DNA of 63,191 nucleotides, the filler included, from Hausera hauseri (Eukaryota): NCBI GenBank assembly GCA_046269625.1. It is 13 parts of 13 records of this genome, joined end to end, with 100 filler letters (N's around TTAATTAATTAA, not from the genome) between each part and the next. Parts side by side here need not be neighbours in the genome. Positions count along the whole stretch, not along the records: positions 49,228 to 54,182 come from JBJURY010379813.1; positions 54,283 to 58,656 come from JBJURY010611444.1; 11 more parts are not named here. The stretch is one strand, 5' to 3'. The notes under the pieces are model-generated. The model was given only the letters and a program-made list of their open reading frames with translations. It was not told the DNA's origin and searched no databases. The translations under genes and the position numbers were made by a program. Positions 21,560-63,191 of this stretch are shown piece after piece (position 1 is the first letter of the stretch; each line of letters opens with the position of its first letter).

Positions 21560-21587
21560 TGTTGCACGCACAACCCCATTATATTTT

Positions 21588-22756: not shown

Positions 22757-22989
22757 AATAGTTTATCAAATATTGTTTTTATGCGTTTGCATAGTTTTTT
22801 TGGTATTATTGTGCTTTTGCTTTCTCATACCGTCACCTTAATTAAACTGATTTGCCGTTTACCGAAGTGCATTTGATGTATGCTCTCGGATTTCAGGCAA
22901 ACCATCAAGAGCACTATCTTTAATGGCATTGCTTTACTGTCCCAAAATAAAATCTGGACCGGCTCTCACAGCTGCTGACCCTGCCGCTA

Positions 22990-27710: not shown

Positions 27711-28673
27711 AGTTCGTCAAGGCTTAATGCGAAATGAGAAAAGAGTGAATATAATGCCCACAATTACCTTAGAAATTAATTTGAAATTCTCGACAATGAT
27801 TACTGATATTATTTACGGAATCAGGTTGGAATAAATAGAAAAGCAAAAATCAGAAAGGCATAGGAGTGAAGTAGTGAGAATCCCAAGCAATCAGTATCAG
27901 ACTGAAATTCACACAAGTATTCGAAAAAGTTATGAGAAGTATCGATCAGATATAGCTGAGGACGAAATTGGACTCATTTCTAATCTGAGGAAATTGCTTT
28001 GAGGAGAGCCGAGTCAACCAAATCAATTCGAAAATCACTGTACATAAGATGAAAGCAGCTACGAAAAAATAAGTGGATTTAATTGGATTTATCATGATTT
28101 TTGTTACTAATTCTGTTCAATCGTCACTAATTACATTGGTAGAGACTTCTACGTAAATGGTTAATTAGTGGGGAGAACAACTAACGTTGACTTGATTAGA
28201 CGTTGTGAGTGGGTATGCAGAGAGGTGTTGTACTGGCTTACCTACCTATTAGTCGGTAATGTGTATGGGGATACTCTTTGGATTATTTTATTACTTTCTA
28301 CTGTTTACTTTCTTATCTTTTATTTAAAAATTAAACTGGCGACCATCAGGTAGAGTTAGACTTGGTCGACCAAATACCAACTTAATTAGCTTTTACTTAA
28401 TTACTCACGTTAATTAGTAAAAAGACTTTAAAAATAAAAAAATAATGTAATGTAGTTCTAAAAGATACGAACAAACAGCATTAACAAACACAACATAAAA
28501 ATCAAATGATACACTTACACGTAGACATGGAGTGATGTATCATAAATTTGTAAATAGCCAATGTCTGTTTTCANNNNNNNNNNNNNNNNNNNNNNNNNNN
28601 NNNNNNNNNNNNNNNNNTTAATTAATTAANNNNNNNNNNNNNNNNNNNNNNNNNNNNNNNNNNNNNNNNNNNN

Positions 28674-28853: not shown

Positions 28854-29149
28854 CGAAAAATTAAGATCACCCGAGGAGAGGAGCTAGATCACCGTACCTC
28901 GTCCGGGAGCGAAAATATAGATCACCCGAGGAGAGGAGCAGTATTATTTAAATCACCGTCCTTCGTCCGGGATTGAAAATATAGATCACCCGAGGAGAGG
29001 AGCAAATATTATTTAAATCACCCGTCCTTCGTCCGGGATCGAAAATTTAGATCACCCGAGGAGAGGAGCCAGTATTAATTAAAATTGTTTAACTTATAAC
29101 ACCCGTCCTTCGTCCGGGATCGAAAATATAGATCACCCGAGGAGAGGAG
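28843..29149 (+). repeat. Five-copy array of a ~40-bp PBS-derived unit with AT-rich linkers
   Basis: Core TCGTCCGGGATCGAAAATATAGATCACCCGAGGAGAGGAG starting at 28843, 28899, 28963, 29029 and 29110. Confidence 0.95.
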
Positions 29150-29706
29150 TATAAAATCTGAGGAGTGAAAGTAAGTAAGTAAAAAAATCCAGTGGAGAAT
29201 CAACGCCAAAGCTCACATAGCGACACAAGAGAACCTTTGGTCAAATTTTTTTTTTTGGTAAAGGGAAAGAAGATAATATTAAGGGAATTAATTATAATTT
29301 TAGTGAGTAATTTATTTTAGTTAAGATGCATGTTTGCCTAATAGCTTCCGTTTCAGTGTAGCAAGGCAAAGGCACAGATACAGTGATCTCGCCAGTAATC
29401 TAAGGCCTCTTATTAAATTATTATAAATAATAAAAAGGTGGGTCTTGAAGGCAGAGGCCAAGGTAAGTTCGTCGAATCAAACGACGTACGCCAAGCAGAA
29501 ATAATTAGTTAAAAGATAAGTCAAATCCAAGATTTCACGGAAATTTAAGAGTATGTATTGAGAAATTGAAGAGCGCACACTTTAGCGCCAAAATTTGAAT
29601 TATCAAAACCGCGATCACCCATTGTAACACATACGCAACACGTAGCGCACGACAAAGCAGGCACCTACATTTCATTTATCGTATTCATTTGCATGATCAT
29701 TGAAGA

Positions 29707-42300: not shown

Positions 42301-43230
42301 AAGGTAATGGTGTCATCCGAATGGATGGACGAAAACGAATGCGAGTTGATTACATATTCCTACATAAAGGACATAAGAGAATGGCTAGTAAACAGTGGTG
42401 GAACGAACGAGTTAAACTACAGATTTTATTATAGAGGTAGAATACTCGATGACCTAGAACAACTAATAGACGTCGAGATTATTCCTGACGAAACAAATAG
42501 GATAGTGGTAGTAGCTAACGAACAAACAAAAGAAGAAGCTACACGTAAAACCAAAACAGAACAATGCGTAGGACAAATCATGGGAGTTCGAGACGCCGCA
42601 CTGCATTTCGAGTATTTACAAACGGACGAAGATAAAGAACAATACGACATAAATTTAGTACCAGTAAGTGAAACAACCACTAAGGGTCCAAGACCGAAAC
42701 GCCCAGTAGGCAGACCTAGAAAAATGCGAGAAGAAGTAGATTACAACGGAGAATTAATTAGAGAATTGAGACAGATGTCGATTCCGACTCTTGGCCCAGA
42801 TAACGAGGAATTAAGCGAGTTAATGAAAAATTTAATACGAATTGTGAATTATTCTAGTTTTCGAGATGTGTTAGATGATAAAGAAAAGATAATTTTCGAT
42901 GCAGCCAAAATGATGAGAAGTTTACGTTTCAAGCTGTCAAAAAGTAACTTAACCGACAAGTCAGTAATAGAAAAGATCATGGTAGAAAACACGAATGAAG
43001 AATTGGGAAAGGTATTGCTATACTTAGCTATAAAAATAAATACTAATCGAGAGAATGAGATCAATAGGGCTATAAGCTTAGCACGGAGAGCAGCAAGAAG
43101 AATACCTTGCCAAGTAAATTGGGCATGGCTATTTGGCAAGGAAGAAGAAAAACGAAATAACAATAAACTAGACGAGATGTTGCGTAGCCTGACAATGTCA
43201 GACGTCGAAGGTCGGAAAAATGAATCGAAT
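39393..43230 (+). pseudogene. Retroelement Gag zinc knuckle plus long accessory region with ubiquitin-like domain and AT-hook (decayed)
   Basis: CFTCGKEGHISRSC at 39439. About 2.8 kb of broken helical coding sequence follows, then a UBL at about 42292-42519 (YRFYYRGRILDDLEQLIDVEI) and PKRPVGRPRK at about 42690-42723, in frame with the glycoprotein signal. Confidence 0.75.
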
Positions 43231-44517
43231 TGGCTAATTAGCTTGCTTACCTTAATGATGCTAATAAAGCATATAAGCGCGGTAACCGTCTACGATTGCG
43301 ATAAGTTTAAATTAGGACAGAGATATTCCTTAATGGACCTGGAAGTATGCGAGGACGCCAGACCGCGCAAATTGGAAACGAGAGAGAAAAGTTACTTCCT
43401 GTATCAACAAGAAGAATTGATATCGTTAGACGGAATGGAGTGCATGTTGAGACGATCGCGTAGTATCTTCCACTGTCGACTAATACACGGACATTCTTCC
43501 ATAATTAAGCCAACTACTCCGCTAATTCCAATGAATTTAGAACGCCAACACTGAAAACAAGCTAAAGAGAATGGAAGAGTACAATGGGACAGTATGCAAT
43601 TAGAAATGCAATCCGGAAAGATAATCGGAGCATACAAAGTAGTAGCTGGAAGGCTGGATATGCATACCGGACATTCTAATGGAGCACAATACGATACAGG
43701 AAAAGGATTAGAATCAAACATAGTAGTTATGGATTTCTACGAATCAGAAATGCGATCACAAAAGGTAATGTTCCATAGTGTCACTAAGTTATATACTGAG
43801 AATCAGAAATGCCATTTACAAGACGGAATTTGTGCTTTTAGAAGCTCGGTTATAGTATGGAAACCTCCTTCTGGAAGAAATTGTAATTTTATTAAAATTA
43901 AAGAACTAAAGTTCAATGAAACTACAGGGAAGAGATATGTGGACAAATCGGAAACTAACTCAAGGACACATAAGGATGTATCAGAACACTCTACACATAC
44001 TATATTAATTTCGGATCAGCATGGATTGAAATTTATTAAAAAAGAAATGATGTCCCGCTGTGATTTAGTGATGTTTGCTACGAAATATGAAGCGTTTTTC
44101 GTCGCAGAAACGGAAATAAGTGCGAAAATTTATAAACTAGAAACGCAGGATGTCCACATTGAAGATTACCTGAAAAATAGAGGTGATTACTTCTACTATA
44201 AAGGACAAGTCGGAATAACGAAATTATATCACAAAATGATAAAGAATGACTGCAAATTGGATACATAAATCATGAGAACTAAAATGGCTCTTATATATGC
44301 AAACCCAGAATTAGCTTCACCAATAATTCCCATGAGAGAAGGAATTTTTGGTGGGTAACAGGCGAAGTACTGCTAACTTTTGAGTGTGAAAAGAGACATG
44401 TACCCATCAACGTGGAAGAAAAATGTTGCATTCAGGAACTTCCTGTTATTTACCAAAATATTCCGAGATTAGGTACACCTCTGACGAGAGTGTTACTGAA
44501 TAACGCTAGCCTACCGA
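43231..44517 (+). pseudogene. Chuvirus-like glycoprotein, 5' two-thirds
   Basis: WLISLLTLMMLIKHISA|VTVYDC..YSLMDLEVC, ECMLRRS..FHC..HGHSSII, CKLD..IMRTKMALIYANP, GEVLLTFEC, CIQELPV, TRVL. Confidence 0.8.
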
Positions 44518-44634
44518 NNNNNNNNNNNNNNNNNNNNNNNNNNNNNNNNNNNNNNNNNNNNTTAATTAATTAANNNNNNNNNNNNNNNNNNNNNNNNNNN
44601 NNNNNNNNNNNNNNNNNCGGAACTTTCGGATATT

Positions 44635-47600
44635 TTGCAAATCGATAAACAATGTTTATATATTGATTCAGGTGCAAGTTGTCATCTTCTTTCTGATGAG
44701 AATTTATTTACAGAATTAAAGTATGAACATTCGCCAGCAAAAATAATTCTCGCAAATGGAAAGACTCTAATTTCGAAAGCAATTGGCTATGCCGACCTTG
44801 ATTTGAAATGCGAATACGGTTTGCAAAAGATCACGTTAACCGATGTTTATTTCGTTCCAGACTTACGGTGCAATTTAATTTCAGTTAAAAAGATCACTGA
44901 TAAAGGATATTCCGTTCTTTTCGAAAAGGAAAATTGTTTCGTGAAAAAGAATGATGAAATAATTATGCACGCACGTTCCGATAAAGGCAGTTTATATAAA
45001 ATCAATCTGATCAAACAAGCAGAAAGCGCTAACATTGCGACTGAGTGCAAAAATAAAAATTGCATACAAATGTGGCACTCAAGACTCGGTCATCGGAGTT
45101 ACGATGCAATTAAACAGATCGTTCGCGAAGACCTTGCCGACGGAATAACATTAGATAATTGTGAACATAATAGTAATTGTTCAGAATGCATTAAAAACAA
45201 AATGCAACAAATTCCGTATCCAAAGGTAGCTAGTGTTCGTGCGACCAAACCACTTGAACTTATACATAGCGACATCTGTGGGCCTATGCCAACCCCGAGT
45301 GTTAGCGGAAAGCTATATTTCGTCACATTTATCGATGATTATACCAGGTACACCGTCATCTATTTACTTGCTAAAAAGAACGAAGTCTTTAGTAAATTGA
45401 AAGACTTTATCGGTATAACAAAAAATAAGTTCGGAAGAACTATACAAACACTCCGAACCGATAACGGAGGCGAATACACCAGCAATGAAATCGAAGAATT
45501 TTTATCGAGCAACGGCATCAAACATCAGCTGACTGTACCTTTCTCACCCCCTCAGAATGGTGTAAGTGAAAGAAAAAATAGAAGTCTCACTGAAATGACT
45601 AGATGCCTGCTTTCTGAGAGCCGACTACCGAACAAATTATGGGGCGAAGCTGTACACACCGCAAATTACATTCAGAACCGCCTGCCTACGAAAGCTTGTG
45701 AAAGAACTCCCTACGAATTATGGAGTGGAAGAAAACCTAACCTAGCTCACATGAAACAATTCGGTTGCACAGCCTATGCATTCGTTCACAAAGAAAACAG
45801 AAGAAAATTAGACCAGAAAGCGATAGAAGGGATTTTTGTCGGCTACGACCAACGATCAAAGGGATACAGAATCTATACAACCGAAAACCGTATAATCGTC
45901 AGTAGAAGCGTAAAATTCATTGAAGAACTGTCGACAAACGAAAATGTTGTAATCCCTCATCCAAGAGCAGAAGATGATGTAAGTAATGACAAAACCGAAA
46001 GGGAATCAGAAGTCAATTCAGAAGAGCTCAGACGATCAGAAAGAAAAAATAAAGGAATACCTCCCGAGCGCTTTGGATTCATGGCAGATATTGCCGAATA
46101 TACTCCTCAGAATTTCAAGGACCTGGATAATTTAGATCCCAGAGAAAAGGAAAAATGGTTACTCGCTGTTAACGAAGAAATCACTTCCTTGTCGAAAAAC
46201 CATACATGGAACTTAGTTGATCTTCCTGATGGAAAGAAACCTATCGGATGCAGATGGACCTTTAAGCTAAAAAAGAATGAAGACGGCACAGTGACTCGCC
46301 ATAAGGCAAGACTAGTCGCAAAAGGCTATAGTCAGAAATTTGGAACCGACTATGATCATACCTTTGCACCAGTAGTTAGACATACAACTATTAGAACCTT
46401 TTTCGCTGCAGCAGCTTACGATAAAATGCACGTCGCACATGCTGATGTTACCACTGCTTTTCTACACGGTAATCTTGAAGAAGAAATATATATGGAACAG
46501 CCGGAAGGCACAATCCAAGCAGGACAAGAACAAAAGGTGTGCAAATTAAACAAATCTCTTTACGGTCTAAAGGAAGCCACTAGAATATGGAATAAAAGAA
46601 TTGAAGAAATCCTAAAGAACAACGGTTTTTCACAAAGTACTGCAGATCCATGCTTATTCATGAAAAAGGATGGAACAGATACAATAATGGTTACTATTTA
46701 CATTGACGACATCCTTATAGCATGTAAAAGGCTCAATAAGATCGATATGTTAATCAAAACCTTCAACAAATTCTTTGAAGTAAAGAACTTAGGAGAAGTT
46801 ACAAATTACCTCGGAATCCATATCAAAAGGAATAACGGAAAATTCTTACTGAACCAAGTATCAAAAATTCATGAGTTAAAGAAAAAGTTCTGCCTGAATA
46901 TGAATAAACAGTCCTACACACCAATGGACACTGCCTATCCAAAAAACCAAGACACCCAACAACTGACTGATAACACAAAATATAGACAAATCATCGGAGG
47001 ATTGCTATATATAGCAACCGTAACAAGACCAGACATCAGTTTTGCAGTGAACCTGTTGAGCAGGAAAAATGAATCTCCAAGTGAAGAAGATTTGAAGGCA
47101 GCTTTAAGAGTCGTAGAATACCTGAATTCAACGAAGGACTTTTACCTCCAAATAGACTCTGACAGCCCTCCTATACTCACTTGCTATACAGATGCTGACT
47201 ATGCATCAGACTTGGCAACTCGCCGGTCAACCGGAGGAAACCTGTTTTTCCTCGGGAACAACCCAATTTTGTGGTCCACAAAAAGGCAAAATTGTGTTTC
47301 CCTATCCTCAACAGAGTCCGAGCTCATTTCAGCAGCCACAGCCGCTCAAGAGTTCAAATGGTTATTAGATTTTCTAAAAGATTTTGGACTATTCCAAAAA
47401 TTACCCATACAAATGTTCGAAGACAATAAGTCCACCATATCCTTAATCCAAAATGGAAAAATGAATACTAGGCTAAAGCATATCAATGTTAAGTATTTCT
47501 TTTTAAGGGAAATGGAAGAAAATAAAATAATTAAGATGACATACTGCAATACAAGTTCCATGATTGCAAACATTTTTACCAAGCCCTTATCCAGACCAAA

Positions 47601-47658
47601 ATTTATTGAAATAAGGGACAAATTAAGTCTAATTTCTTTTCCCGAAATACATGATTAA
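44635..47658 (+). CDS. pol: Copia/Ty1 Pol (PR-IN-RT-RH), 5' end cut by contig edge
   Basis: IDSGAS, WHSRLGH, HSDICGP, RTDNGGEY, QNGVSERKNR, KARLVAKGYSQ, YIDD, YTDADYA, SSTESE. The last RNase H Asp reads N (IANIFTK). Confidence 0.97.
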   Translation: MQIDKQCLYIDSGASCHLLSDENLFTELKYEHSPAKIILANGKTLISKAIGYADLDLKCEYGLQKITLTDVYFVPDLRCNLISVKKITDKGYSVLFEKENCFVKKNDEIIMHARSDKGSLYKINLIKQAESANIATECKNKNCIQMWHSRLGHRSYDAIKQIVREDLADGITLDNCEHNSNCSECIKNKMQQIPYPKVASVRATKPLELIHSDICGPMPTPSVSGKLYFVTFIDDYTRYTVIYLLAKKNEVFSKLKDFIGITKNKFGRTIQTLRTDNGGEYTSNEIEEFLSSNGIKHQLTVPFSPPQNGVSERKNRSLTEMTRCLLSESRLPNKLWGEAVHTANYIQNRLPTKACERTPYELWSGRKPNLAHMKQFGCTAYAFVHKENRRKLDQKAIEGIFVGYDQRSKGYRIYTTENRIIVSRSVKFIEELSTNENVVIPHPRAEDDVSNDKTERESEVNSEELRRSERKNKGIPPERFGFMADIAEYTPQNFKDLDNLDPREKEKWLLAVNEEITSLSKNHTWNLVDLPDGKKPIGCRWTFKLKKNEDGTVTRHKARLVAKGYSQKFGTDYDHTFAPVVRHTTIRTFFAAAAYDKMHVAHADVTTAFLHGNLEEEIYMEQPEGTIQAGQEQKVCKLNKSLYGLKEATRIWNKRIEEILKNNGFSQSTADPCLFMKKDGTDTIMVTIYIDDILIACKRLNKIDMLIKTFNKFFEVKNLGEVTNYLGIHIKRNNGKFLLNQVSKIHELKKKFCLNMNKQSYTPMDTAYPKNQDTQQLTDNTKYRQIIGGLLYIATVTRPDISFAVNLLSRKNESPSEEDLKAALRVVEYLNSTKDFYLQIDSDSPPILTCYTDADYASDLATRRSTGGNLFFLGNNPILWSTKRQNCVSLSSTESELISAATAAQEFKWLLDFLKDFGLFQKLPIQMFEDNKSTISLIQNGKMNTRLKHINVKYFFLREMEENKIIKMTYCNTSSMIANIFTKPLSRPKFIEIRDKLSLISFPEIHD

Positions 47659-47667
47659 AGGGGGGAA

Positions 47668-47920
47668 TGTTGTAAACTAATCATGACTTTCGGCAAAAAC
47701 CCTACTCATAACTGGACTTTCACATTTGTCTTGTAACCCCATAAAAGCCGCCAAGGCGCGCGCCAAAACGTCCCGTGATGTATTATTATTCATTCCCTGT
47801 TTTTGTTCTTCTATGTACGCCACGTCTCTTGTGTTCTTTGTGATGTATCGTCTAAGCTTACGAACAACTTAAATAAAATTCGTCTTATGGAATTACTCCA
47901 TTATTTTAGTCTTTCCAACA
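47668..47920 (+). repeat. Copia LTR (253 bp)
   Basis: Preceded by PPT AAAGGGGGGAA; TGTTG...CAACA termini; AATAAA near 47872. Confidence 0.88.
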
Positions 47921-48095
47921 CAAGTCTACACGTATCCTGATAAGGAGATTCTCCGTGTGATAGAGAGGTAAGTGTGTTTTTACTACCTACTCTTTCAATG
48001 ATTATGAGACTGAACGGAAGTCTCTAAATCACGTTACTCTCTAGACTGTGTTTGTGAAGTTGTTAAAAACTGTTCCACAAAGAAAAACTTTAAAT

Positions 48096-49127
48096 ATGGC
48101 TCAATCAGTTACTAAAGATACAATAACAAAACTGAACTCCGAGAACTATGCGACCTGGAAGTTCAAGATCCAAATGCTACTAATGTGCGATGGACTAGAC
48201 GATATTATTAACTCTCCCCCACCGGAGAATCCTGATGAAGCATTTCTAAAAAAGGACAAACAAACGCGAGCTATCATAAATCTGTGTATAGATGATTCTC
48301 AAATCATACACGTTAGAAACGAAACTACCGCTGCCGGAACTTGGCAAAAGTTAAAATCTGTACATGAGCGTTCCAATTTAAGCAGCAAATTATATTTGTT
48401 AAGAAAATTGTATTCAATCAAAATGCCGATACATGGGAATATGGTAGAACATATTACGCACATGATGGATCTAGTCGAAAAACTAAAGGCTATCGGTGAG
48501 AATATTCCCGACCAACATGTAGCTGCACTCCTACTAGTGTCAATCCCAGAATCTTACAATAATTTAATCACTGCTCTAGAAGCAAGAGATGAGAGCCTCA
48601 TAACTACGGACCTAGTTAAAGCGAAATTAGTCGACGAATACAATAGAAGGTCAGAACAACAAGCTGATAGAAATTCTAATACTTCGACAGCTTTTAAATC
48701 TGCATTAAATGCAAGAAATTTTAATAATAAGAAAGCAGAGAAATTTTGCAGCTTTTGTAAGCGCAACGGACATACTCGAGATCGCTGTTTTAAATTACAA
48801 AATAAAAACAATGTTTATCCCAATAATGCGAAATCAGAAGAACGCGTGACCAAATATGGCGGCAAATCGGACCGATATTGCATGACCGCAAAAAGTTTTA
48901 ACTCGAGCGTCAGCCAGATTTCTTTGGCGCCAGATGGGAAAAATATTTACACTAAAGGATTAATTATAACGCCGGAACTTTCGGATATTTTGCAAATCGA
49001 TAAACAATGTTTGTACATTGATTCAGGTGCAAGTTGTCATCTTCTTTCTGATGAGAATTTATTCACAGAATTAAAATATGAACATTCACCAGCAAAAGTA
49101 ATCCTCGCAAATGGAAAGATTTTATTT
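48096..49127 (+). CDS. gag: Copia Gag plus start of protease (second, tandem copy; partial)
   Basis: KLNSENYATWKFKI, W.KLKSVHE, LLVSIPESY, CSFCKRNGHTRDRC, then the same LQIDKQCLYIDSGASCH as at 44635. Confidence 0.93.
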
Positions 49128-49227: not shown

Positions 49228-50285
49228 TTTTGTTCGGGGTTGCTGGGAATCCATTCGTGTTCCCACTTTAATCCAGCATTTATATCCCTTAGATATTAGG
49301 ATCTTTGATTAGCGGTCAACACCCTGCTTATTTTTATATTTCCTCCGGTCATGGCCTTTACCATTAACTTAAAACGGCCTCTCACGGTGGTTGGTAGATG
49401 ACCCTTCTTCTCTTCAACCTTAATTCCCATTTGTCTCATAACTGTCGGGTGGGTTTCTATCTCTCTCACTCCGGCTATATGCGTTACCTGTATGGCTAAT
49501 TTCTTTATCATCCTCTCTACTTGATACCCCACTAAGATGTATCCATAGAGGCATTGTGCTACTTCTTGTTGCACTAATTTGGAATCCTTTCCATGATTTA
49601 ATTGCTCTCTTTTAATACCGGTAACTTTTGCATAAGTTTCTAGCACTTTCTTTCTCGGGTTAATGATTTTCAAATAAACCTCTGTCCCGTTTTCTTCTCG
49701 GATGGATATTTCGATCGGAATATAATTTCCCTCTTCTCCTTCCCCCTAGTTTATTGCGACAATCCTGAGATTCCTTTCATCGGCTACCAATCTAAATGAA
49801 TGTAGATGTGCGTCCTGTTCTTCTTCCTTGGGCCTTTGTCTGAACTCTAAGGGCGGCAATGAGACGGTTATTATCTCCTCTTCAGTAGTCTCGATCATCA
49901 TCTTTACAGGTAAGGCGGCCACACGAAATTCCAGTTCTTAGTTATGGAAATTTCTTCTGTCAAATATGAATGTGCTGAAATAGCTTTGCCTTCCTTGGAA
50001 AGAGTCCCATTTTTGATCTTTCAATCGATAATAAATTTCTCCGTCGGCCAGGTGTACATATATCTTCTGTTCTTTATCCGTTTGATACTGAGTGATCTGT
50101 TTGAAGGGGTATGCCTTAGCATCCTTGTCTTCCCTCCATGCGTACAAGTATACCGCTCTGGCCTCCTCGATTGTACCTTTTAACCCATTTGGTATCTCGC
50201 CAACTTTCCCATACTGAACGAAGCTCTTTCCTTGTAACTCCGTATTGATTTGCCTATAGATGGCCTTTGAATTCGGGATCCGCAC
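49228..50285 (-). pseudogene. Accessory ORF ending in a degenerate REX4/ISG20-like DEDDh exonuclease-fold domain
   Basis: ORFs 49938-50285 and 49296-49673 share one frame with two stops. IVAIN*..IEISIREENGTEVYLKIINPRKKVLETYAKVTGIKREQLNHG..VQQEVAQCLYGYILVGY follows the REX4-type pattern, but catalytic acidic residues are not evident. Confidence 0.55.
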
Positions 50286-50331
50286 TGTTACATATCGCTG
50301 TAAAATTCGTCGATACTAAGTCGACTTGTGT

Positions 50332-52010
50332 TTTCTAGTTTCATCAGCGTATGTTCGATATCTTTTAAGTGTTCCTCTTCTGTTCTCGATGCTATTATCA
50401 CATCGTCTAAGTACGCAAAAGCATGATCCAATCCCATTAACATTTTGTTCATCATTCTTGTAAATATGGCTGGTCCAGTAGTAATGCCGAATGGCATGAC
50501 ATTAAACTGATAAACACCATCGTGCGTTTTAAAAGCTGTCTTATAGCGATCTTCGTCTTCTATCTCCACTTGCCAATATTCGGATTGTAAATCCAGAGTG
50601 GTAAACCATTTTGCTCCTAAGAGACGGTCTAAAGCCTCTTTGACCGACGGTAGTGGGAAGGAATCCTTCATCATAAGATTATTCAAGGCTCTGTAATCAA
50701 TACAAAATCGATGTTTGGTGGTACCTTTTTTTAACCATGAGGATTCGTGAATACCAAGATCTATAGCTAGGTCTGATTATATGGGCTTTAAGTATTCGTT
50801 CAACTTCCTTCGTTATCTCGGGCCTTAATGAATGCGGCGGAGGATACCATTTTGGCATCTTTTGGTCTTTCAAGTCTATTTCCTCGTTTGACCCTGGCTT
50901 TTCCTTGAGTGGAATAGTTAGTTTTAAGGCTTTCGCTCTACCGATATCTTTTTCGTCTTTTGCAATAATCGATTTATATCGGCATAACAATTCGTAGAAT
51001 CGGCAATAAGACTCAGGTGAAAACTTAATTTCAACATGAGGTGGAAATTCGGTATACTTGTAAGGTTTTTCTTCGATAGTTATTGACGATACTCTATACG
51101 TGTCTCCTAAAGTAGTATAAGCATGGAGCTTGACATGAGTTTGCGCGTCATTAACTATTCTGATTGGTACTCGGCCGGAGTGTACTTTCGTTAATACACT
51201 GCTGAGTAATATATTCCGATCTAACGTATCTCTCGGTTTAAAATATACTGGTAGATCATCATCTTGCTGTATCTGGGCATAAATTATCATTTCTGTTCTT
51301 GGTGGAATGTTTTCGTCAAATAGTATCCACACTTCTCCAAATTTTTTATCCTTACGGCTTTTCCCGCCTTTATTTGGCCTGATTTCTATCAGCTTCCCTG
51401 TTTGTAAGTCAGTTGCTATATTTGGCAATCTTTTCAGTAGATCACATCCTAGAACTATGTCGTCGGTTAATTGTTCCATAACCGCAAATTCATGCCGGAA
51501 AAATTGTCCAACGAATTGAACTTCTGGGTTCCATTTAAACATCGGTTTCGACATTTCACCAAAAGCTCCTGTACTTCCTGGATCTTTTGCAGATGGAGAA
51601 TATAATTGTCCTCTTAGAGTTTGTGGTATTGAATCATTTTTAGTGTAAGACATTTCCGATCCTGTATCGATTAAGGCATAAACTTCCCAATCTTCAATAA
51701 TGATTTTGGCGAAGGGTCTCCCTTCTATTACTGTTCCGAAAGAGTTCGGTGTATCCTTTGAGCGTTTCGCCACCGATATTTTGTGTCCATTAATTCGGAT
51801 TTCGGGAGAGGCTACTATATTCTCCGATAATTCTCTTAATTCTTCATTTGGGTATAATTCGTTGTTTTCTATGTGTACTTCTTCCGCTTCATGTGTACTG
51901 ATTAATGGTTCTCGATTATTAGTATGTAATTCAGTATTCTGGAAAGTTTTTAACCTTGGATTATCCCAAACCGTTGATATAGTTTTTATGTTTCGAGGTT
52001 CTTTCGGAGA
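50332..52010 (-). pseudogene. pol: Gypsy protease + RT (truncated after YLDD) downstream of the glycoprotein
   Basis: ALIDTGSE, dUTPase-like spacer, DSFPLP, TLDLQSEYWQV, MPFGIT, AYLDDVII; homology ends at about 50332. Confidence 0.92.
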
Positions 52011-52083
52011 TTACAACATCTTTGGACCGTCTGTGGATTGTCGGTAACACATTTACCGTAGGATTCCGTAACGTTTCGTTCCT

Positions 52084-54182
52084 TCATAAGGATCTTCTAC
52101 GTTTATTGTTTTCCGTCTGATATGAACTCATAGATCGTTTGTCACAATCTTCATAGAATGGAGAGGTAGGAGGTAACATGGGCAATGGTGCTTTAACGAC
52201 AGAGTACATCTTATGTCTATTTAATCCTGAAAGTACTTCTCCTCCCTTAGGCTCGTCATCATCTGAATTATTTCTTCGTAAATTGGGTTTTGAAAATTTC
52301 TGATTCCTGAAGAATATGGGTCTTTCTTTTCGTTTACCACTATAATAGCCGACATGGTGTTCTACGTCCGATTTCCATCTATTTTCTGCGTATGCTTTTA
52401 AGAATTTTCCAAAGGGTGTTATGATTGCCGTCAATGCCTTACATAAAAATCCAGTCAATATAAATAGTTCATTGCCATTTATTACCTCTTGGATGACTGC
52501 TTTAATCATGTGTATCAAGAAGTGTATCGCTAAAAATCCGGATGCAGCTTGTCCGAATATCAGAAAATTTCCCCACATTTTGTAAAGTATTTTGTTTGCT
52601 ACTCTCTGATGATGATTCACATCGAGTAAAGATTCCCATTTAGCTTGATATCGGGTGTCGTCTACTACAGACGCCATGGCTCGATTTAGCTCATGTGTTC
52701 GTTGTCGTGGAAAGGCAAGGAATTATCTGAAAGCCTCAATTTCCCTCGGTCTATATATGCCTTTTAAGGAAGTGTTTTAAAATTTATTGTCTGTAATTCT
52801 TTTTGCGAGATTTGTTCCTGTTAATTTATTTGGAGCGGCAATAATACATCCATTTGGCAAGCTGACCCAGTCTGTCTCACTACGTCTAAACCTAGGTTCT
52901 CCTAAGTTTGCCTTGCAATTTTTAAGGATGGTTGATTGGGTAGCATTATCCAGTAACACTCTCGTCAGCAGTGTAGCTAACCTCGGAATATTTTGGCAGA
53001 TAACAGGAAGTTCCTGGATGCAATGTTTTTCTTCTACGCTCATGGGTACATCTCTCTTTTCACATTCATAAGTTAGCAATACTTCGCCTGTAACCCTACC
53101 AAAAATTCCTTCTCTGATGGGAATTATTGGAGAAGCTAATTCTGGATTTGCTTATATCAGAGACATTTTAGTTCTCATGATTTCTGTATCCAATTTGCAG
53201 TCATTCATTATCATTTTGTGACATAATTCTGTTATTCCAACTTGTCCTTTATAATAGAAGTAATCATCTCTATTTTTCAAGTAATCTTCGATGCGGACAT
53301 CCTATGTTTCTAACTTTTACGTTTTCGCACTTATCTGCGTTTCTGCGATGAAAAAGGCTTCACAGTTTGTAGCGAACATCACTACATCGCATCGAGAGAT
53401 CATCTCTTTTTTAATAAACTTCAACCCATGTTGATCCGAAATTAATATAGTAGGTGTAGCGTGTACTGATACATCTTCACGTGTCCTCGAATTGGTTTCT
53501 GACTTGTCCACATATCGTTTTCCTGTAGTCTCATTGAACTTTAGTTTTTTAATTTTAATAAAATTAAAATTTCTACCAGGAAGGAGGTTCCAATATTATA
53601 ACCGAACTTCTAAAAGCACAGGTTCCATCTTGTAAATGACATTTCTGATTTTCAGTGTATAATTTAGTGACACTGAGGAACATTACCTTCTGTAATCGCA
53701 TTTCTGATTCGTAGAAATCCACAACCACCACGTTTGATTCTAAACTTCTTCCGGTGTCGTATTCGGCTCCATTACAATGTCCACTATGCATATCTAGTCT
53801 TCCGGCTACTACTTTGTATGCCCTGATTATTTTCTCTGGCTGCATCTCCAATTGCATACTGTCCTATTATATTCTCCCAGTTTCCTTTGCTTGCTTGCAG
53901 TGTTGACGTTCTAAGTTCACTGGGCTGTTGGTTTGATTATAAATGAGTGTCCATGAACCAACCCACAGTGAAAAATGCTACGTGATCATCTCAACATGCA
54001 TTCCATTCCATCTAGCGATATCAACTCTTGTTGCTGATACAGGAAATAATTTTTTTCTTTTGTCTTTAATTTGTGTGGTCTAGCATCTTCGCATACTTCC
54101 AGATCCACTAAGGAATATCTCTGTCCTAGCTTAAACTTATCACAGTCGTAGACAGTTACAGCGCCTATGTGCTTAATTATCA
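52084..54182 (-). pseudogene. Chuvirus-like glycoprotein, nearly complete, with TM and cytoplasmic tail
   Basis: AVTVYDCDKFKLGQRYSLVDLEVC through CIQELPV, TRVL, GIY, MWGNFLIFGQAASGFLAIHFLIHMI; same family as 43231-44517. Confidence 0.82.
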
Positions 54183-54282
54183 NNNNNNNNNNNNNNNNNN
54201 NNNNNNNNNNNNNNNNNNNNNNNNNNTTAATTAATTAANNNNNNNNNNNNNNNNNNNNNNNNNNNNNNNNNNNNNNNNNNNN

Positions 54283-56300
54283 TTAATGCACGGACATTCG
54301 TCAATAATCACACCAACTATCCCTCCAATTTCGATGAACTTAGAATGCCAGCACTGCAAACAGGCTAAGGAGACTGGAAGAGTACAATGGGACAGTATGG
54401 AATTTGAAATGCAATCAGGAAAGATAATTATGGCATATAAGGTAGTGGTCGGAAGGTTAGACATGCATAACGGACATTGTAATGGGGCGGAATACGACAC
54501 CGGAAAAGGATTACAAGCAAACGTAGTGGTCGGGGATTTCTATGAATCAGAGATGGGAGCACAAAAAGTGATTTTCCATAGTGTCACCAAATTATATACC
54601 GAGAATCAAAAACGTCATTTAAAAGACGGAACCTGTACTTTTAAAAGTTCTGTTATAATATAAAAACTTCTCTTCTAGACGAAACTGTAATTTTATCAAA
54701 ATTAACGAATTGAAGTTTAATGAAACTACAGGAAAGTGATATGTGGATAAATCTATTACCAACTCAAGGACACGCAAAGACGTATCAGAACATCCTACAC
54801 CCACTATATTAATCTCTAATCAGCATGGACTAAAATTTATTAAGAAAGAAATGATTTCTCGTTGTGAAATAGTGATGCTCGCTACTAACTATGAGGCGTT
54901 TTTCGTCTCCGAGACAAAAATAAATGAGAAGACTTACAAGTTAGAAACGCAAAATATTTGAATTGAGAATTATCTAAAAAACAGAGACGATTATTTCTAT
55001 TACAAAGGGCAAGTCGGTATAACCGAGTTATGACATAAAATGAGAACAAATGAATGTAAATTGGATATGGAAATCATGAGGACAAAACTGGCTCTTATTT
55101 ACGCTAATCCCGAGTTAGCATCCCCAATAATTCCTATGAGAGAAGGAATTTTTGGACGATTTACTGATGAAATCTTACTGACTCATGAATGTGAGAAAAG
55201 AGACGTACCAATCAATGTAGAAAAAAACGATGTATACAGGAACTTCCCGTTATTTATCAGAACACTCCACGATTAGCCATGCCGTTTACTAGGGTATTGT
55301 TAGATAACGCGACTCAGCCAACGATCCTTAAAGACTGTAAGGCAAGCTTAGGAGAACCAATGTTTAGACTTAGGGAAACAGATTGGAATAGTATGCCAAA
55401 TGAGGTATTACTGCCGTTCCGAATAAATTACCGGGGACAAATTTCGCGAAAGGGATTACCGACGACTAATTCCAAGATACCTCTCAAAAGGGTATATATA
55501 GGCCCAAAGAGACTGAAGCCTTCAGGCAATTCCTCGCCTTCCCACAACAACGGACACATGAATTAAATCAAGCCATGGCATCAGTAGTAGAAGATACTCG
55601 CTATCAGGCTAAATGAGAATCCCTGATCGAAGTAAACCATTACCAACGGGTAACTACAGAAATACTCTAAAAAATTTTGGGAAGGTTTTTGATTTTTGGA
55701 CAAGCCACATTTGGATTTTTAGCGATATATTTCTTGATTCAATTAATTAATGCAGTCATTCAAGCGGTAATAAACGGATATGAAATATTTACATTGACTG
55801 GATTTTCATGCAAAATTTTAACGACAGTTATAACACCATTCGAAAAGTTTTTTAAGGCCTACGAAGAAAACAGATGGAAATTAGACGTAGAACGCCATGT
55901 CGGATATCATAATCGTAAAGGAAAAGGAAAACCGATGTTCTTGTACAAGCGGAAATTCAAGAAATCTAATATACGGAGAAATAATTCAGATGTCGACGAG
56001 CCTTATGGAGGAGAAGTACCTTCGAGAACAAATTGGCATAATGCGTATTCCATTATCAAAGCACCGTTGCTTATGCTACCCCCTACTGCTCCAGAAGATT
56101 GTAATAAGCGTTCAATGATCTCATATCAGATAGAAGTATATAAGAGGACAATTAGCTTGGGGGACCCATATGAAGGGAAAAAACGGTATGGAATTTTGCT
56201 GAAAATGTGCTATCGACCGCCGATGGATGATCCTACAATCTTGTACTCTCCACGGGAACCCCGAAACATAGAAACGAGACCACCTGTCTGGGAAAATTGA
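54283..56300 (+). pseudogene. Chuvirus-like glycoprotein with TM and tail
   Basis: HGHSSII, GHCNG, CKLDMEIMRTKLALIYANP, FLIFGQATFGFLAIYFLIQLI. The tail is in frame with the protease ORF at 56418. Confidence 0.82.
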
Positions 56301-56417
56301 AGGTTACAGACCTTCCAAAATATAGAATTCCACACTAATAATCGAGAACCATTAATTAGTACACATGAAGCAGAAGAATTGAACATCTAAAATAATGAAT
56401 TATACCCAAATGGTGAG

Positions 56418-58340
56418 TTGAGACAGCTAACCGAGAATATAATATCCTCTCCGGAAATCACGATAAATGGTCACAAGATATCGGCAACAAAACGTCCTAA
56501 AGCGGCGTCAAACTGGTTCGGGGCAGTAATAGAGGGAATGCCCTTCGCCAAAATTATTATTGAAAATTGGAAAGCGTATGCATTAATCGATACAGGTTCT
56601 GAGATGTCTTACATTAAAAACGACTCAATTCCCGAAACTTTAAAAAAGACAGTTATATCCGCCGTCAGCAAAAGATTCCGAAAGAACAGGAGCTTCATGT
56701 CAATTGTCAAAACCAATGTTCAAATGTAACCCAGAACTTCAAATATTTGGACAGATTTTCGATCACGAATTTGTAGTTATGGAACAATTAACTGATGACG
56801 TAGTCTTGGGGTGTGATGTATTAAAAAGACTATCAAATATAGCAATTGACTTGCAAACCGGAAGATTAATAGAAATCAGGCCAGATAAACGCATAAAAAT
56901 GCTAAGGATAGGAAATTTGGAGAAGTGTGGATACCGGTAGATGAAAATATTCCACCGAGAAAGGAGATAATAATTTACGCACAAATTCAGCAAGATGACG
57001 ATCAGCCAGTATATTTTGAACAAAAGGAAACATTAAATCCAAATATAGCGCTCAGTAACGTACTGACAAGAGTACACTCCGGTAGTATACCAATAAGGAT
57101 AGCAAACAACGCACGTAACCCCGTAAAGCTTTATGCTTATACTACTCTAAGAGATACGTTAAAAGTGTCGTCTATAACTATTGAAGAAAAGCCTTACAAG
57201 TATGCCGAATTTCCACTTCATGTTGAAACTAAGTTATCTCCAGAATTTTACTGTCGATTCTACGAATTATTATATCGCTATAAATCGACTATTGCTAAGG
57301 ATGACGAGGATATCTATAGGTTTAAAGCATTAAAATTGACTGCTCCTCCCAAGAAAAAGCCTGGTTCGAATGAAGAAATAGATCTTGAAGATCAGAAGAT
57401 GCCGAAATGGTATCCTCCGCTACATTCCGAGATAACAAAAGAAGTCAAACGGATGCTAAAGGCCGATATAATTAAGCCCAGCTATCGATCTTGGTATTTA
57501 CCAATCCTCATGCTTAAAAAGAAAGGTGGTACGAAACATAGATTTTATATTGATTACAGAGCATTAAATAATCTTATGATGAAAAATTCCTTTCCATTGC
57601 CATTAGTAAAGGAAGCACTAGACAAACTCTCAGGAGCAAAATGGTTCACCACTCTAGACTTACAATCTGAATATTGGCAAGTAGACATCGAGGACAAAGA
57701 TCGATATAAAACCGCATTCAAAGCACACAATGACGTTTATGAATTCAATTTTATGCCATTTGGTATTACTACCTGGCCCGCTATCTTTACGAAAATGATG
57801 AAAAAAATGTTAATGGGATTAGATCACGCCTTTGCATATTTAGATGATGTGATAATTGCGTTAAGAACAGAAGAAAAACATTTAAAGGATATTGAACACT
57901 TCTTAATGAGACTAGAAAAGGCAAGACTAAAATTGAAGTTAAAGAAATGTAAATGGGCTCAAACGCATTATCCTATCTGTGCCATATAGTTGGAGAAGGA
58001 GGATCAAAACCAGATAAATTATTATTGAAAAAAATATCAGATTGCATAAAGCCACAAAATCAGAAAGAATTAAAGTACTGGCTAGGTCTTTGTGGATATT
58101 ATGCCACTTATGTACCAGATAACTCAAAAATAAATGCACCCTTATATCGTCTACTTAAAAAGGGAATTAAATGGAAATGGACAGACGTCGAACAAAAAGC
58201 TTTCAACGAGATAAAGAAGATATTAACAAGTGAACCAGTTTTATGATACCCGGACTTCAATTTACCATTCATAATTAAAGTAAAGAAGGTATTCGATATG
58301 AATTGGCTCAGAAACGAGATGAAGAATTAAAACTGTTGTC
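56418..58340 (+). pseudogene. pol: Gypsy protease, RT and start of RNase H
   Basis: ALIDTGSE, RFYIDYRALN, TLDLQSEYWQV, AYLDDVII, WLGLCGYY, W.WT..EQKAF..IK..LTSEPVL. Confidence 0.93.
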
Positions 58341-58756
58341 ATTGAAATAGTTGTGTGGATGTTGTACACGTGTATCAGCCGTTGGTCCTTGTGAATAGAT
58401 AATCAAATGAATAAATTTATAAACTTTTGCCAAGTTTTCTTGGTGCAACAAAACGTAATCCGAACATTTCGGTTGCACCAACAACATTTCGTAATTTTAT
58501 TTTGGAATGGAGTTTGTACAATTTGTTATGATACATAACTCATAACCTTTGTCAATCACTGTAGCAATATATTAAAAAGGATACTTCGTATTGAGATTCA
58601 AAAGGCTTTATTAACAACCTTCAAAATTGTATTTTTAAAAATTTTATTAGTTATCANNNNNNNNNNNNNNNNNNNNNNNNNNNNNNNNNNNNNNNNNNNN
58701 TTAATTAATTAANNNNNNNNNNNNNNNNNNNNNNNNNNNNNNNNNNNNNNNNNNNN

Positions 58757-59486
58757 TCTTGGTTCACGGGTAGTTTGCAACAGGGGTTTTGCGCACCTGC
58801 GCGAATAGAACAATATTCTATTTTCGGGGTTTGTCCACTTGCTGCTTTGAATGTGATGCTAATTTCTCGGTTGACAGTTAACTCTGTTTTGGCATCTACT
58901 TGGATGAATTGTTTTTGCTTGTTTATAGAGATTCTCCAAATATTTTCGTCTAATAGTCTCACATCCGGGTCAGTATATCGCAGCAATTCATTGGGTTTTA
59001 CTCCATGATGTCTGTTTCATGCAAGAATAACTAACTGAAATTGTGGTTTTACTTCAATATAAACTTCGGTTGAGTCTGGTAAGTATAGGCGATAGGCAAG
59101 ATTATAAGTACGCCCAAAATCTATGTCGCAACACTGCGTATTTTCTCCAGGCTCAAAATCAAAATTTTCGCTTCTTTTGTTATTACATCATATAAACCAA
59201 TTTGAAATCTTCCAAAATCGTGGTGCGGTTTCCAAGTCTTAAATCCAACACATACGGCGTTTGGTGAATAATAATGAATCGTCATTGATTGCAATAGTTT
59301 AGCACCTTCTTGTCTTCGGATATCTTCGACTGTTGGTTTCTTTTCCGTTTTAATCGGTTCCGATTTTGATTCGCTCTTCCGAATTCCGTATATATCTCCT
59401 AACGTAGGCTCATCGTGCCGCCATTGGGCTTGTGTTCTCGGAATATAAGAAGCAATTAGCGATAATGCTAAGACTATCTGAACGTA
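58757..59486 (-). pseudogene. Post-integrase ORF with signal-peptide-like start and CC motifs
   Basis: In the integrase frame, after KRYNLR..RPI*, comes YVQIVLALSLIASYIPRTQAQW. After a frameshift: GENTQCCDIDF and EYCSIRAGAQNPCCKLP; runs off the contig. Confidence 0.5.
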
Positions 59487-62400
59487 CTAGATCGGTCTGG
59501 CAATTATTGACGAAGTTTTTACCTCGCATTGGCGTAAATTATAACGCTTGTTTGGCCGTATTTCTGTCTTGACAACTCTTTGTACTGACACAACTTCTTC
59601 CTTTTCATTTTTGTTAATATACACTGTGGTCGGCGTGACTTTGGTAACTTCGTATGGTCCTCTGCCTGTGCGAGTTAATTTTATTGAGGTGCCTTTCTTG
59701 GCTAGTGGGTAATTGCATAGACCCAATTTTCTTGTTCTATATCATGCGGTTTCGCTTTCTTATCATATTGCTTTTTAAACTGCTCTTGATATTCTTAAGA
59801 TAATTTTTTGGCAATTTCCCAGCATTTTTGTAATCGCGTTTGTAATACTTCTGCGAAATTTTGTTCTAAATCTTCGGGATTGACTGTGAATGGCGTCATT
59901 CCTAAGTCCGTGGGCAACACGGCTTCGCGTCCATACATCATGAAAAATGGAGTGAATTTTGTTGCTGGATGTGGTGTGGTATTAATAGTAAACTGAGTCT
60001 CTTCCAAAAATTCGTCCCAATCTTTCTGGTCCTTTGCTACTACTGTCAATAATATACGTATAATGGTTGCATTCATTCGTTCCACCATTCCATTACATTG
60101 AGGATGATACGCAATAGTCGTTAATCGTTCGATTTCAAATATTTTAGTGATTTTTTCAAATAATTCACTTGTAAAATTTCTTCCTCGATCTGTGAGTATC
60201 TTGTCTGGGGGTTCGTATCGGCAAATAATCCTTCTTACTACGGCTTCTGCTAAAGTTTCTGCCTTTTGATCAATTAACGATATCAACTCGACGAAATGAG
60301 TTAGTCGATCAATACACATCAAAATATATTTATTGTTCCTGTGAGTAGTAGGAAGAGGTCCTACGAGGTCCATCGACATGGCTTGCATGGGCCTGTAGGG
60401 TACATCAATTACTTTTAGTTCGGCCATGTAATTTTTCGTCTTCTTTTGTTTAGTTGCACATACGTCACAAGCATTCACCCAATTTTTCGCATCAATATAG
60501 ATACTAGGCCAGAAATATTTATTCATTATTCTTTCTAACGTTTTCTTCCAGGACATGCGCCATGCCAAATATGAATCGTGTTCTGACATCAGTACTTCTG
60601 TTCGAAAACCTTTTGGAATAACTGTCAGTTTCATTCATTTCCGTTCGTAATATAAAATATCTTCATTGCTCTTGTCACTTAGGACGCAATATTTATGTCC
60701 GTGTCTGTGTAAATGTTTCTTTAACTGTCGTCCCTTCGGTATGACATCCTTTTTAGCAAATTTTATAATCTGCTGGATGACCTTATCCTTCCTTTGTTCT
60801 GTTGAAATTTTAATTGCTTTATCCATTGTCAAGGCGCGTTGCCGATCTACTATCTCTTCGAGTTGGCTTTTCTTCATTACAGTAATCGCACTCGTTTTAG
60901 TCTTCAATCTTGATAGTGCGTCCGCGTCTACATGTTTATTTCCCGGCGTATACTGGAATTCAATATTGTATCTTGATATTTCTTCGATCCATCTGTTAAG
61001 CCTGCATGTCGGGTTATTTGCTCGGACTTTTAAGGTTGTAACGGCCTTGTGATTAGTGACAATTATAATTTTCTGACGGTATACGTAAACGTTGAAATGA
61101 TGCAGTGCTTCTTTTACGGCTAGAGTTCCCAGTTCTGTAACCGAACAGTTTTTCTCGGCCTTCTTCAAAGAACGTCCTGCATAAGCAATTGGGTGTTTTA
61201 ATTTTTTGTCTTCTCTTTTCTGCGCTAATTTATAACCAATGCCTTCCTTACTGGCGTCTGTCTTGATTATAAAAGGTAGTTAAAATCTGGATATCGCAAA
61301 ATGGGTTCACTTGTTAATATTTTCTTCATCTCATCAAAAGCTTTCTGTTTGACGTCTGTTCATTTCCATTTAATTCCTTTCTTAAGTAAGCGATATGAGG
61401 GTGCATTAATTTTTGAATTATCCGGTATGTAAGTTGCATAATATCAGCATAATCCTAGCCAGTGTTTTAATTCCTTTTGGTTTTGTGGTTTCATGCAATC
61501 GGATATTTTGTTCAATAACGATTTATCTGGTTTTGATCCTCCTTCCCCAACTATATGACCTAGGTAGGATACGGCGTTTTGGGCCCATTTGCATTTCTTT
61601 GGATTTAATTTCAATCCGGCGTGTTCTAGTCTCCTTAGCGTATGTTCCATATCTTTAAGTGTTTCTCTTCTGTCCTCGATGCTATCATCACATTGTCTAA
61701 GTACGCAAAAGCATGATCCAATCCCATTAACATTTTTTTCATCATTCTTGTAAATATGGCTTGTCAGGTAGTAATACCGAACGACATGATATTAAATTCA
61801 TAAACGCCATCATGAGTTTCGAGTGCCGTTTTATATCGGTCGTTGTCCTCTATCTTTACTTGCCAATATCCGAATTGTAAGTCTAGAGTGATAAACCATT
61901 TCGCTCCTGAGAGTCGGTCTAATGCCTCTTTGACCGACGGTAGTGGGAAAGAATCATTCATCATAAGATTATTTAAGGCTCTGTAATTAATACAAAATCG
62001 ATGTTTCGTGGTACCTTTCTTCTTAACCATGAGGATTGGTGAATACCAAGATCTATAGCTAGGCCTGATTATGTCTGCCTTAAGCATTCTTTCGACTTCT
62101 TTCGTTATTTCGGGCCTTAATGAATGCGGCGGAGGGTACGATTTCGGCATCTTCTGGTCTTGCAAATCTATTTCCTCGTTTGACCCTGGCTTTTTCTTGA
62201 GTGGAATAGTTAGTTTTAATGCTTTCGTTCTACCGATATCTTCTTTTTCCTTATCAATAATCGATTTATATCGGCATAACAATTCGTAGAATCGACAATA
62301 AGACTCAGGTGAAAATTTAGTTTCGACATGAGGTGGATATTCGGCATACTTGTAAGGTTTTTCTTCGATAGTTATTGACGATACTATATATGTGTCTCCT

Positions 62401-63191
62401 AAAGTAGTATAAGCATGGAGCTTGACGGGAATTTGCGCGTTATTAGCTATTCTGACTGGTACTCAACCGGAGTGCACTCTTGTTAATACGTTGCTGAGTA
62501 ATATATTCGGATCTAACGTATCTCTTGGTTCAAAATATACTGGTTGATCGTCAACTTGCTGTACCTGGACACAAATTATTATTTCTGTTCTTGGCGGAAT
62601 GTTTTCGTCAAATGGTATCCACACTTCTCCAAATTTTCTATCCTTAGCATTTTTCACGCCTTTATTGGGCCTGATTTCTATTAATTTTCCTGTTTGTAAG
62701 TTGATTGCTATATTCGGTAGCCTTTTCAGTAGATCACATCCTAGAACGACGTTATCCGTTAATTGTTCCATAATTCGAATTCATAATAAAATGTTTGCCC
62801 AACTATTTGGACTTCTGGGTTCCATTTAAACATTAATTTCGACATTTGGCCAAAAGCTCCTCTACCTGCTGCGTCTTTTGCAGATGGAGGATATAATTTT
62901 CCTCTTAGAGTTTGTGGTATTGAATTATTTTTAATGTAAGACATTTCCGATCCTGTATCGATTAAGGCATAAACTTCCCAATCTTCAATAATGATTTTGG
63001 CGAAGAGTCTCCCTTCTATTACTGTTCCGAAACAGTTCGGTGTATCCTTTGAGCGTCCATTAATTCGGATTTCGGGAGAGGCTACTATATTCTCCGATAA
63101 TTGTCTTAATTCTTCATTTGGGTATAATTCATTGTTTTCTATGTGTACTTCTTTTGCTTCATGTGTACTGATTAATGGTTCTCGATTATTG
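59487..63191 (-). pseudogene. pol: Gypsy Pol (PR-RT-RH-IN with GPY/F motif), decayed; same family as 50332-52010
   Basis: LIDTGSE, RFCINYRALN, KTDASKEGIG, ELGTLAV, HVDADALSR, CDVC, MDLVGPLP, TDRGRNF, NGMVERMN, GPYEV. Near-identical in DNA to 50.3-51.9 kb, including the pre-protease linker. Confidence 0.95.

Follow-up and report, generated by a model that had tools for sequence, protein, structure and literature searches.

Decayed copies of two probable Burro-type Ty3/Gypsy subfamilies, with a class III-type glycoprotein between Gag and Pol in a predicted single polyprotein

Burro (GYPSM1) elements are giant gypsy-like long terminal repeat (LTR) retrotransposons of planarians that occur in many copies, with decayed fragments in Dugesia japonica, and whose env lies in frame between gag and pol, an order described by Arkhipova and Yushenova in 2019 (PMC6431247). 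Their Smc, MATH, BIR, and ankyrin cargo varies between species (PMC6431247). Chary and Hayashi (2026) reported GAG-ENV-POL elements with an env of the herpesvirus glycoprotein B (gB) type in nematodes, bryozoans, and flatworms, including six elements with 1-215 intact copies in Schmidtea mediterranea, and cite the nematode endogenous retroviruses of Sacco et al. (2022) for their flipped env-pol order (PMC13524379). Here, we analyzed a stretch of 63,191 nucleotides, filler included, from Hausera hauseri (GCA_046269625.1), hereafter the window, in which 13 short contigs are joined with N spacers between them. The window has a GC content mostly of 30-40% and consists mostly of mobile elements. 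Five of its contigs carry decayed pieces of Ty3/Gypsy elements, which are very probably copies of two Burro-type subfamilies, from a likely flatworm host, with one reading frame predicted to give one polyprotein; the Burro-type identity of the element is the part of this reading in which we have the greatest confidence.

The five copies were named A (24106-28573, minus strand), B (39393-44517, plus), C (49228-54182, minus), D (54283-58656, plus), and E (58757-63191, minus), on contigs of 4.4-5.1 kb, and stops and frameshifts were found in every one of them. Copies B, C, D, and E are 76-88% identical to each other at the DNA level by blastn (D to C, 76% over 3,610 bases; E to C, 88%; B to C, 84%), whereas copy A gave no blastn match to B-E and its env is only 28% identical to that of B; two subfamilies (A and B-E) were therefore recognized. 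An earlier reading of this DNA (the original prediction) had taken the 24-28 kb copy as the same element, which holds for its CCHC-to-glycoprotein order and not for its subfamily. Because no single contig covers gag to integrase, the gene order had to be pieced together from the copies: Gag (CCHC), ubiquitin-like domain, putative Bcl-2-like domain, signal, glycoprotein (PF24664, gB/class III type), transmembrane segment (TM), protease (PR), reverse transcriptase (RT), RNase H (RH), and integrase (IN). The features are as follows, where P numbers denote relatives described below and KD denotes Kyte-Doolittle hydropathy peaks:

26474-27709, minus: copy A, Gag with one CCHC at 26929 and three stops (Pfam; 49% identity to the Gag of P0002)
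24106-26499, minus: copy A, open 798-codon frame with ubiquitin-like domain, Bcl-2-like domain (25294-25563), signal (~25120-25173), and N-terminal half of the glycoprotein (PF24664, E 2.1e-30; 41% identity to P0002 over spacer and env)
39393-43233, plus: copy B, Gag with one CCHC at 39439 (zf-CCHC, E 3.8e-7; Gag is cut by the contig start), long spacer, ubiquitin-like domain (~42360-42560), and likely Bcl-2-like domain (~42950-43140)
43234-44517, plus: copy B, internal signal segment and N-terminal two thirds of the glycoprotein (Pfam, hydropathy)
52580-54182, minus: copy C, end of the signal segment and glycoprotein ectodomain, with stops and frameshifts (PF24664, E 1.5e-12 and 1.3e-4; tblastn of relatives to 1e-60)
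52411-52579, minus: copy C, env TM and second hydrophobic stretch (KD 1.74 and 1.85)
51723-52410, minus: copy C, env tail and linker to the protease, with two stops and an 11-base net indel relative to D near 52110 (alignment to D)
50325-51722, minus: copy C, protease, ~210 codons, and RT to just past YxDD (RVP, E 0.001; RVT_1, E 1.5e-28; motifs)
49228-50315, minus: copy C, coding region that adjoins the RT partway through it and weakly resembles a DEDDh exonuclease at 49299-49745 (RNase_T, E 0.007, below cut-off)
54283-55715, plus: copy D, glycoprotein ectodomain, broken, 5' part lost at the contig end (PF24664)
55716-55841, plus: copy D, env TM and second hydrophobic stretch (KD 2.18 and 1.37)
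55857-56510, plus: copy D, linker in frame with env and protease, two stops (dN/dS 0.16 over 214 codons)
56511-58333, plus: copy D, protease, intervening region, RT, and start of RNase H (RVP, E 2.5e-4; RVT_1, E 1.2e-27)
59530-63191, minus: copy E, end of the linker, protease, RT, RNase H, and integrase with GPY/F region (PF17917, PF00665, PF17921), colinear with P0003, P0009, and P0152
58757-59486, minus: copy E, signal-like stretch after the integrase (KD 1.89), then ~240 codons to the contig end; candidate second membrane protein

At copy C, 13,900 contigs of sequencing run X1 and 718 of run X2 map at >=85%, each run filling 30/30 bins, which argues for a highly repeated family; contig depth does not equal copy number, and X1 is possibly the source sample. 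All bins of the 49228-50315 region are covered by contigs from both runs; this region probably represents the 3' part of the element, brought next to the RT by an internal deletion, or another repeat. The catalytic motifs of its DEDDh-like match look degenerate by eye, and the region adjoins the cut RT.

Pfam matches to PF24664 (Monjiviricetes_fusion) were found in A, B, C, and D; they are preceded by a zinc knuckle in A and B and followed by protease and RT in C and D, and Pfam placed RNase H and integrase in E. The motif series from which a chuvirus-like glycoprotein had been proposed maps to the places given for it. When a profile of 40 env relatives was compared with the PDB, 36 of 39 rows were herpesvirus gB (best E 0.0017), over one 74-position stretch; a single-sequence search of the PDB with the env returned 0 matches. 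A Foldseek search of BFVD with the env model (pLDDT 29) gave a list headed by glycoproteins of chuvirus-like and other negative-strand viruses (9 of the top 11 rows were named viral glycoproteins, several of them chuvirus-like); none reached E<=0.001, and we take this as a lead only. The VIA search produced generic helical matches only (Z<=7.4), and the Atlas search with the env produced no usable match. A class III fusogen fold is thus predicted for the env; membership of the family supports this fold well, and direct comparison of structures supports it weakly.

The pol order, PR-RT-RH-IN, is of the Gypsy type, with all four domains in copy E. Pfam gave Gypsy-type RT_RNaseH and Integrase_H2C2 hits and no BEL/Pao family hit in the pol of the window copies. 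The best PDB match of the RT is the Ty3 RT (E 1.5e-35), followed by a family at E 2.2e-22 that we take to be the caulimovirus-type enzymatic polyprotein. The proposed pairing of a Gypsy-type pol with a chuvirus-related, class III glycoprotein is therefore upheld by the Pfam, Ty3 RT, and gB profile matches, and the RNase H and integrase noted in a third copy were recovered by Pfam at 58757-63191 (minus).

The protease DTG motif lies at 51677 in C and 56580 in D, ~260-290 codons after the env TM. In D, a single frame runs from 55404 via the TM into the protease and holds five stops, two of them in the linker (56298 and 56388); neither is common to C, which has two linker stops of its own. Over 214 aligned linker codons, C and D differ at 40, 32, and 90 first, second, and third codon positions. 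The dN/dS ratio is 0.16 in the env/protease frame, with 0 shared stops, versus 1.22 and 1.69 in the other two frames, with 6 and 9 shared stops; the env TM region (0.20) and the start of the protease (0.12) gave similarly low values. The linker has been under protein-coding constraint in the frame shared by env and protease. Of 10 indels between C and D, 8 alter the reading frame, and the slippery-type heptamers of the two linkers seldom coincide in position. The D linker is spanned by overlapping X1 contigs, and no length difference inside it was listed at a 25% threshold, a result of little weight given the thin cover and the 3 empty bins of X2.

The original prediction had the glycoprotein tail and the protease of the 54-58 kb copy in one frame, and the frame running from 55404 bears this out. 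It also held that the stops are not common to the copies and that the consensus junction is open: the absence of shared stops stands, and copy C is offset by its frame-changing indel and adds its own two stops. Its claim that glycoprotein and TM lead straight into protease and RT is right about the order in C and D and wrong about adjacency, given the length of the linker. As for a Gag (CCHC) leading to signal and glycoprotein, the succession is seen in A and B, with 440 (A) to ~1,280 codons (B) and the ubiquitin-like and Bcl-2-like domains in between.

With the env of A as query, a full HMMER search retrieved 252 proteins at E<=0.001, of which 150 were listed. Word-indexed homology searches returned no match; in view of these 252 relatives, such blanks are meaningless. 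No related locus was found in the viral and metagenome contigs searched. We scanned 21 long relatives (18 HMMER matches and 3 cluster members), all of them predicted open reading frames (ORFs) from assemblies that show open frames, not translation. Six of the 21 (P0003, P0009, P0010, P0019, P0152, and P0156) have an unbroken ORF that contains env, protease, RT, RNase H, and integrase, with a CCHC upstream as well in P0009 and P0019. P0021 runs from env to RNase H in one chain, and seven more have env and protease. P0002 joins Gag, ubiquitin-like domain, Bcl-2-like domain, and env in one ORF that is open where copy A changes frame. Together with the constraint on the linker, these relatives support the proposed single frame from gag through env into pol.

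An env tree was built from the 89 of the 150 listed matches that cover >=270 residues. It places the two window envs, together with 12 that are embedded in polyproteins and 5 fragments (304-492 residues), in a 19-member clade (SH 0.985) separate from stand-alone glycoproteins of 600-750 residues; 3 other embedded matches fall outside the clade. Several of P0003, P0005, P0006, P0022, and P0152 have two to seven protease-like repeats per polyprotein, some after the integrase, and C2H2 fingers and ankyrin repeats also occur among these five (ankyrin in P0152). P0009 was deposited as a hypothetical protein of a Flavobacteriaceae metagenome-assembled genome and is likely animal DNA binned into a bacterial genome.

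Upstream of the env, a profile of A, B, and six relatives matched ubiquitin-like structures in the PDB (E 4.9e-5; all 60 rows shown). Single-sequence scores for copy B were weak (Rad60-SLD_2, E 0.09; ubiquitin, E 0.14), and the Atlas search with the spacer gave ubiquitin clusters at 0.75-0.76, again a lead only. The B spacer aligns with P0156 at z 8.5 and with P0002 at z 4.6, and the B ORF at 41926-43551 continues without a stop from the spacer, across the signal, and into env. The domain directly before the signal resembles Bcl-2 in A (E 0.0024) and P0004 (E 0.00096), both below cut-off; its best PDB match was BOK at E 0.58, and Foldseek of a poor spacer model returned Bcl-2 family members in 11 of 46 rows, none at E<=0.001. 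Copy B gave no direct Bcl-2 match, and its Bcl-2-like domain is called from the weak P0002 alignment and from P0007, whose tblastn match extends into env.

Hydropathy shows a signal-like segment before the env and a single strong TM behind it, an arrangement repeated in relatives; the signal-like segment is present in 10/10 relatives shown, of which 4 have no Met within the preceding 50 residues. From general rules of insertion into the endoplasmic reticulum (ER), we consider the following processing model reasonably probable. The hydrophobic segment before env would act as an internal signal, at which signal peptidase would part Gag-Ubl-Bcl-2 from Env, with the former staying in the cytosol, anchored to the ER membrane, and the ectodomain facing the lumen. 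Transfer would stop at the env TM, so that tail, protease, RT, RNase H, and integrase would be cytosolic and at first tethered to Env, until the element protease released capsid, nucleocapsid, and enzymes. Gag, Env, and Pol would then sit on one membrane at 1:1:1, a situation favoring budding into endomembranes; the class III fusogen could serve cell-to-cell spread, and the Bcl-2-like domain could delay the death of the producing cell. The original prediction likened this topology to that of a flavivirus polyprotein, and flavivirus-like processing is a reasonable proposal. Whether such elements spread extracellularly is, in our judgment, evenly balanced. The window copies are all broken and hence incapable of the proposed cycle, and "potentially infectious", as the original prediction had it, cannot apply to copies that all have stops and frameshifts.

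Several observations weigh against this interpretation. The gene order is assembled from overlapping copies. Copy C changes frame within the linker, through the 11-base indel, and A changes frame between gag and spacer; we read both changes as decay, and an unbroken copy was seen of neither subfamily. Met codons lie ahead of the signal in A, B, and 6/10 relatives, making a separate env message possible. In C, D, and 13/13 relatives shown, the TM is followed by another hydrophobic stretch (maximum KD 1.0-1.85); were that stretch to cross the membrane, the protease would be luminal. The AlphaFold models were unusable (pLDDT 29 for env and 36 for the spacer). The Bcl-2 scores and the per-sequence ubiquitin scores are below the Pfam cut-offs, and the spacers of A and B were not significantly aligned by BLASTP. 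No dUTPase hit was found at E<=5 in the ~210 codons between PR and RT in 3/3 copies, nor any Smc, MATH, BIR, or ankyrin Pfam hit in the spacers of A and B. The RT tree (11 rows) was unresolved, with C-E on a long branch and not grouped with the env-bearing relatives. Finally, it is the env relatives only that point to a flatworm as the likely host.

The same element could instead rely chiefly on spliced or subgenomic RNAs for Env and Pol, or on recoding for Pol, with the single frame serving a minor product. Most retroelements make far more Gag than Pol, which, like the Met codons just before the signal and the frame changes in A and C, counts in favor of this alternative. We nevertheless regard it as unlikely, as four of ten relatives lack a Met before the signal, the frame is uninterrupted at these junctions in P0002, P0009, and P0019, and C and D share no stop in the linker.

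Less probable still is an independent gag-env-pol lineage in a non-planarian host (another flatworm, a bryozoan, or a nematode) that converged on the Burro layout. GAG-ENV-POL elements are not monophyletic in the published POL tree (PMC13524379), and the long RT branch of C-E would fit such a lineage. Against it, the ubiquitin-like and Bcl-2-like domains stand at the Burro positions, and env motif hits were confined to Schmidtea. Of six motifs sought in the env table of PMC13524379, four were found: three of the five taken from the window, and the one taken from the table itself. The hits lie in Schmidtea (Smed) rows in 7/7 cases, and 0/6 motifs hit a nematode row; this was a short-motif search, not a full alignment, and gaps in the aligned rows can hide motifs. 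An ordinary Gypsy element with a chuvirus glycoprotein fossil inserted into it, or attached to it by misassembly, is effectively refuted: the contigs are short and Gypsy fragments beside such fossils are common in arthropods (PMC10084718), but C and D, 76% alike, are colinear across a junction under purifying selection, relatives keep the same order in one ORF, and overlapping contigs of X1, possibly the source sample, tile the linker.

A second membrane cassette may follow the integrase. All five relatives that extend past the integrase carry, in the same ORF, a signal-like segment that is followed by 230-350 residues and then another hydrophobic segment; the sixth one-ORF relative ends inside the integrase. 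Copy E has the signal-like start of such a cassette, followed by ~240 codons. A C-x-x-L-x-P-[DS]-T motif is present in 4/5 cassettes, whose pairwise similarity is weak (1/21 pairs above z 4; E versus P0152, z 3.0, a score reached by 6/300 shuffles), and the cassette tail profile did not find copy E. The domain has no Pfam family; one PDB search with it gave no match, and its only PDB match, obtained with a profile of four cassettes and E, was a 98-residue EphA2 chain at E 1.1, presumably a fibronectin-III fragment. The cassette was not found in print; Repbase, Grohme 2018 and its supplement, and Sacco 2022 may mention it. As a tentative proposal, which we think more apt to be wrong than right, Burro-type elements might be enveloped viruses whose one polyprotein yields a two-glycoprotein entry machine: the gB-type fusogen and, after the integrase, a type I attachment protein with a signal, a possible fibronectin-III-like head, a Thr-rich stalk in some, and a TM, which would bind the target cell. 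Herpesviruses and paramyxoviruses, which split attachment from fusion, offer an analogy. If true, this would be an entry system unlike that of other retroviruses and errantiviruses.

Other elements were observed elsewhere in the window. A third, divergent PF24664 glycoprotein C-terminal piece lies at 358-1146 (plus; E 1.5e-25), with no protease seen downstream and a Gag-like ORF starting at 3787 on the same contig. At 29704-34776 (plus), an unbroken 1,691-codon ORF encodes an env-less Gypsy gag-pol (GC3, 0.51 versus 0.31-0.40), with a 62-base repeat present four times ahead of it (28892-29164). Decayed ORFs at 4410-8979 and 15274-24005 look by eye like a Maverick/Polinton protein-primed polymerase and neighboring genes; two contigs here are 77% alike over 3.3 kb. 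The element at 44618-49127 looks Copia-like by eye, with a pol ORF of ~1,010 codons and then a second gag start, in two tandem copies with 155 common bases at 94%. A 945-codon coiled-coil ORF at 12338-15173 (plus), intron-free and with internal repeats, gave sub-threshold Pfam hits only and is possibly a host gene.

Among described systems, Burro elements are the closest. Gag with CCHC, a Ubi/SUMO-like domain, the env in frame, PR-RT-RH-IN, and an env akin to mononegavirus-type fusion glycoproteins are shared, and probably a BCL2-like domain as well (PMC6431247). Copy A differs in being much more compact and in having one CCHC, compared with 2-3 in Burro, and the window copies show no match to MATH, Smc, BIR, ankyrin, or dUTPase, the last of which was found in Burro by HHpred (PMC6431247). 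The post-integrase signal-like segment of the window and relatives is not mentioned for Burro in the parts of PMC6431247 consulted. Smed_errantivirus_1-6 (Platyhelminthes_C1a, HSV/gB-type) match in gene order, in a gB-type env with signal and TM, and in exact short env motifs, and differ in being intact and mostly multicopy, while the window copies are broken (PMC13524379). In the available portion of PMC13524379, it is not stated whether the three genes form one ORF, and Burro is not named. Anakin, a BEL/Pao element of mosquitoes (PMC7642597), carries a chuvirus glycoprotein of the same broad family, whereas the window pol is of the Ty3/Gypsy type. Troyka was considered and rejected, having no envelope (PMC12440569).

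The endogenous retroviruses of nematodes also have an env upstream of pol in a metavirus, and differ in their hosts. Those of Sacco et al. reportedly have a continuous gag-env-pro-pol ORF. The kind of element is unusual because a polyprotein threaded through the ER would tie Gag, Env, and Pol to one membrane in equal amounts; no report of particles for such elements was found in the literature covered. The order was already catalogued, in Burro (PMC6431247) and in the GAG-ENV-POL tables (PMC13524379), and the suggestion of a possibly undescribed lineage is thereby refuted. The window adds two decayed subfamilies to this published kind and, relative to the parts of the earlier descriptions consulted, new sequence evidence, namely that the env-protease junction is under purifying selection and that several natural relatives have the layout in one ORF. 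The gag-env-pol layout is thus known and the two decayed subfamilies are new, and only the predicted second surface protein at the tail looks undescribed.

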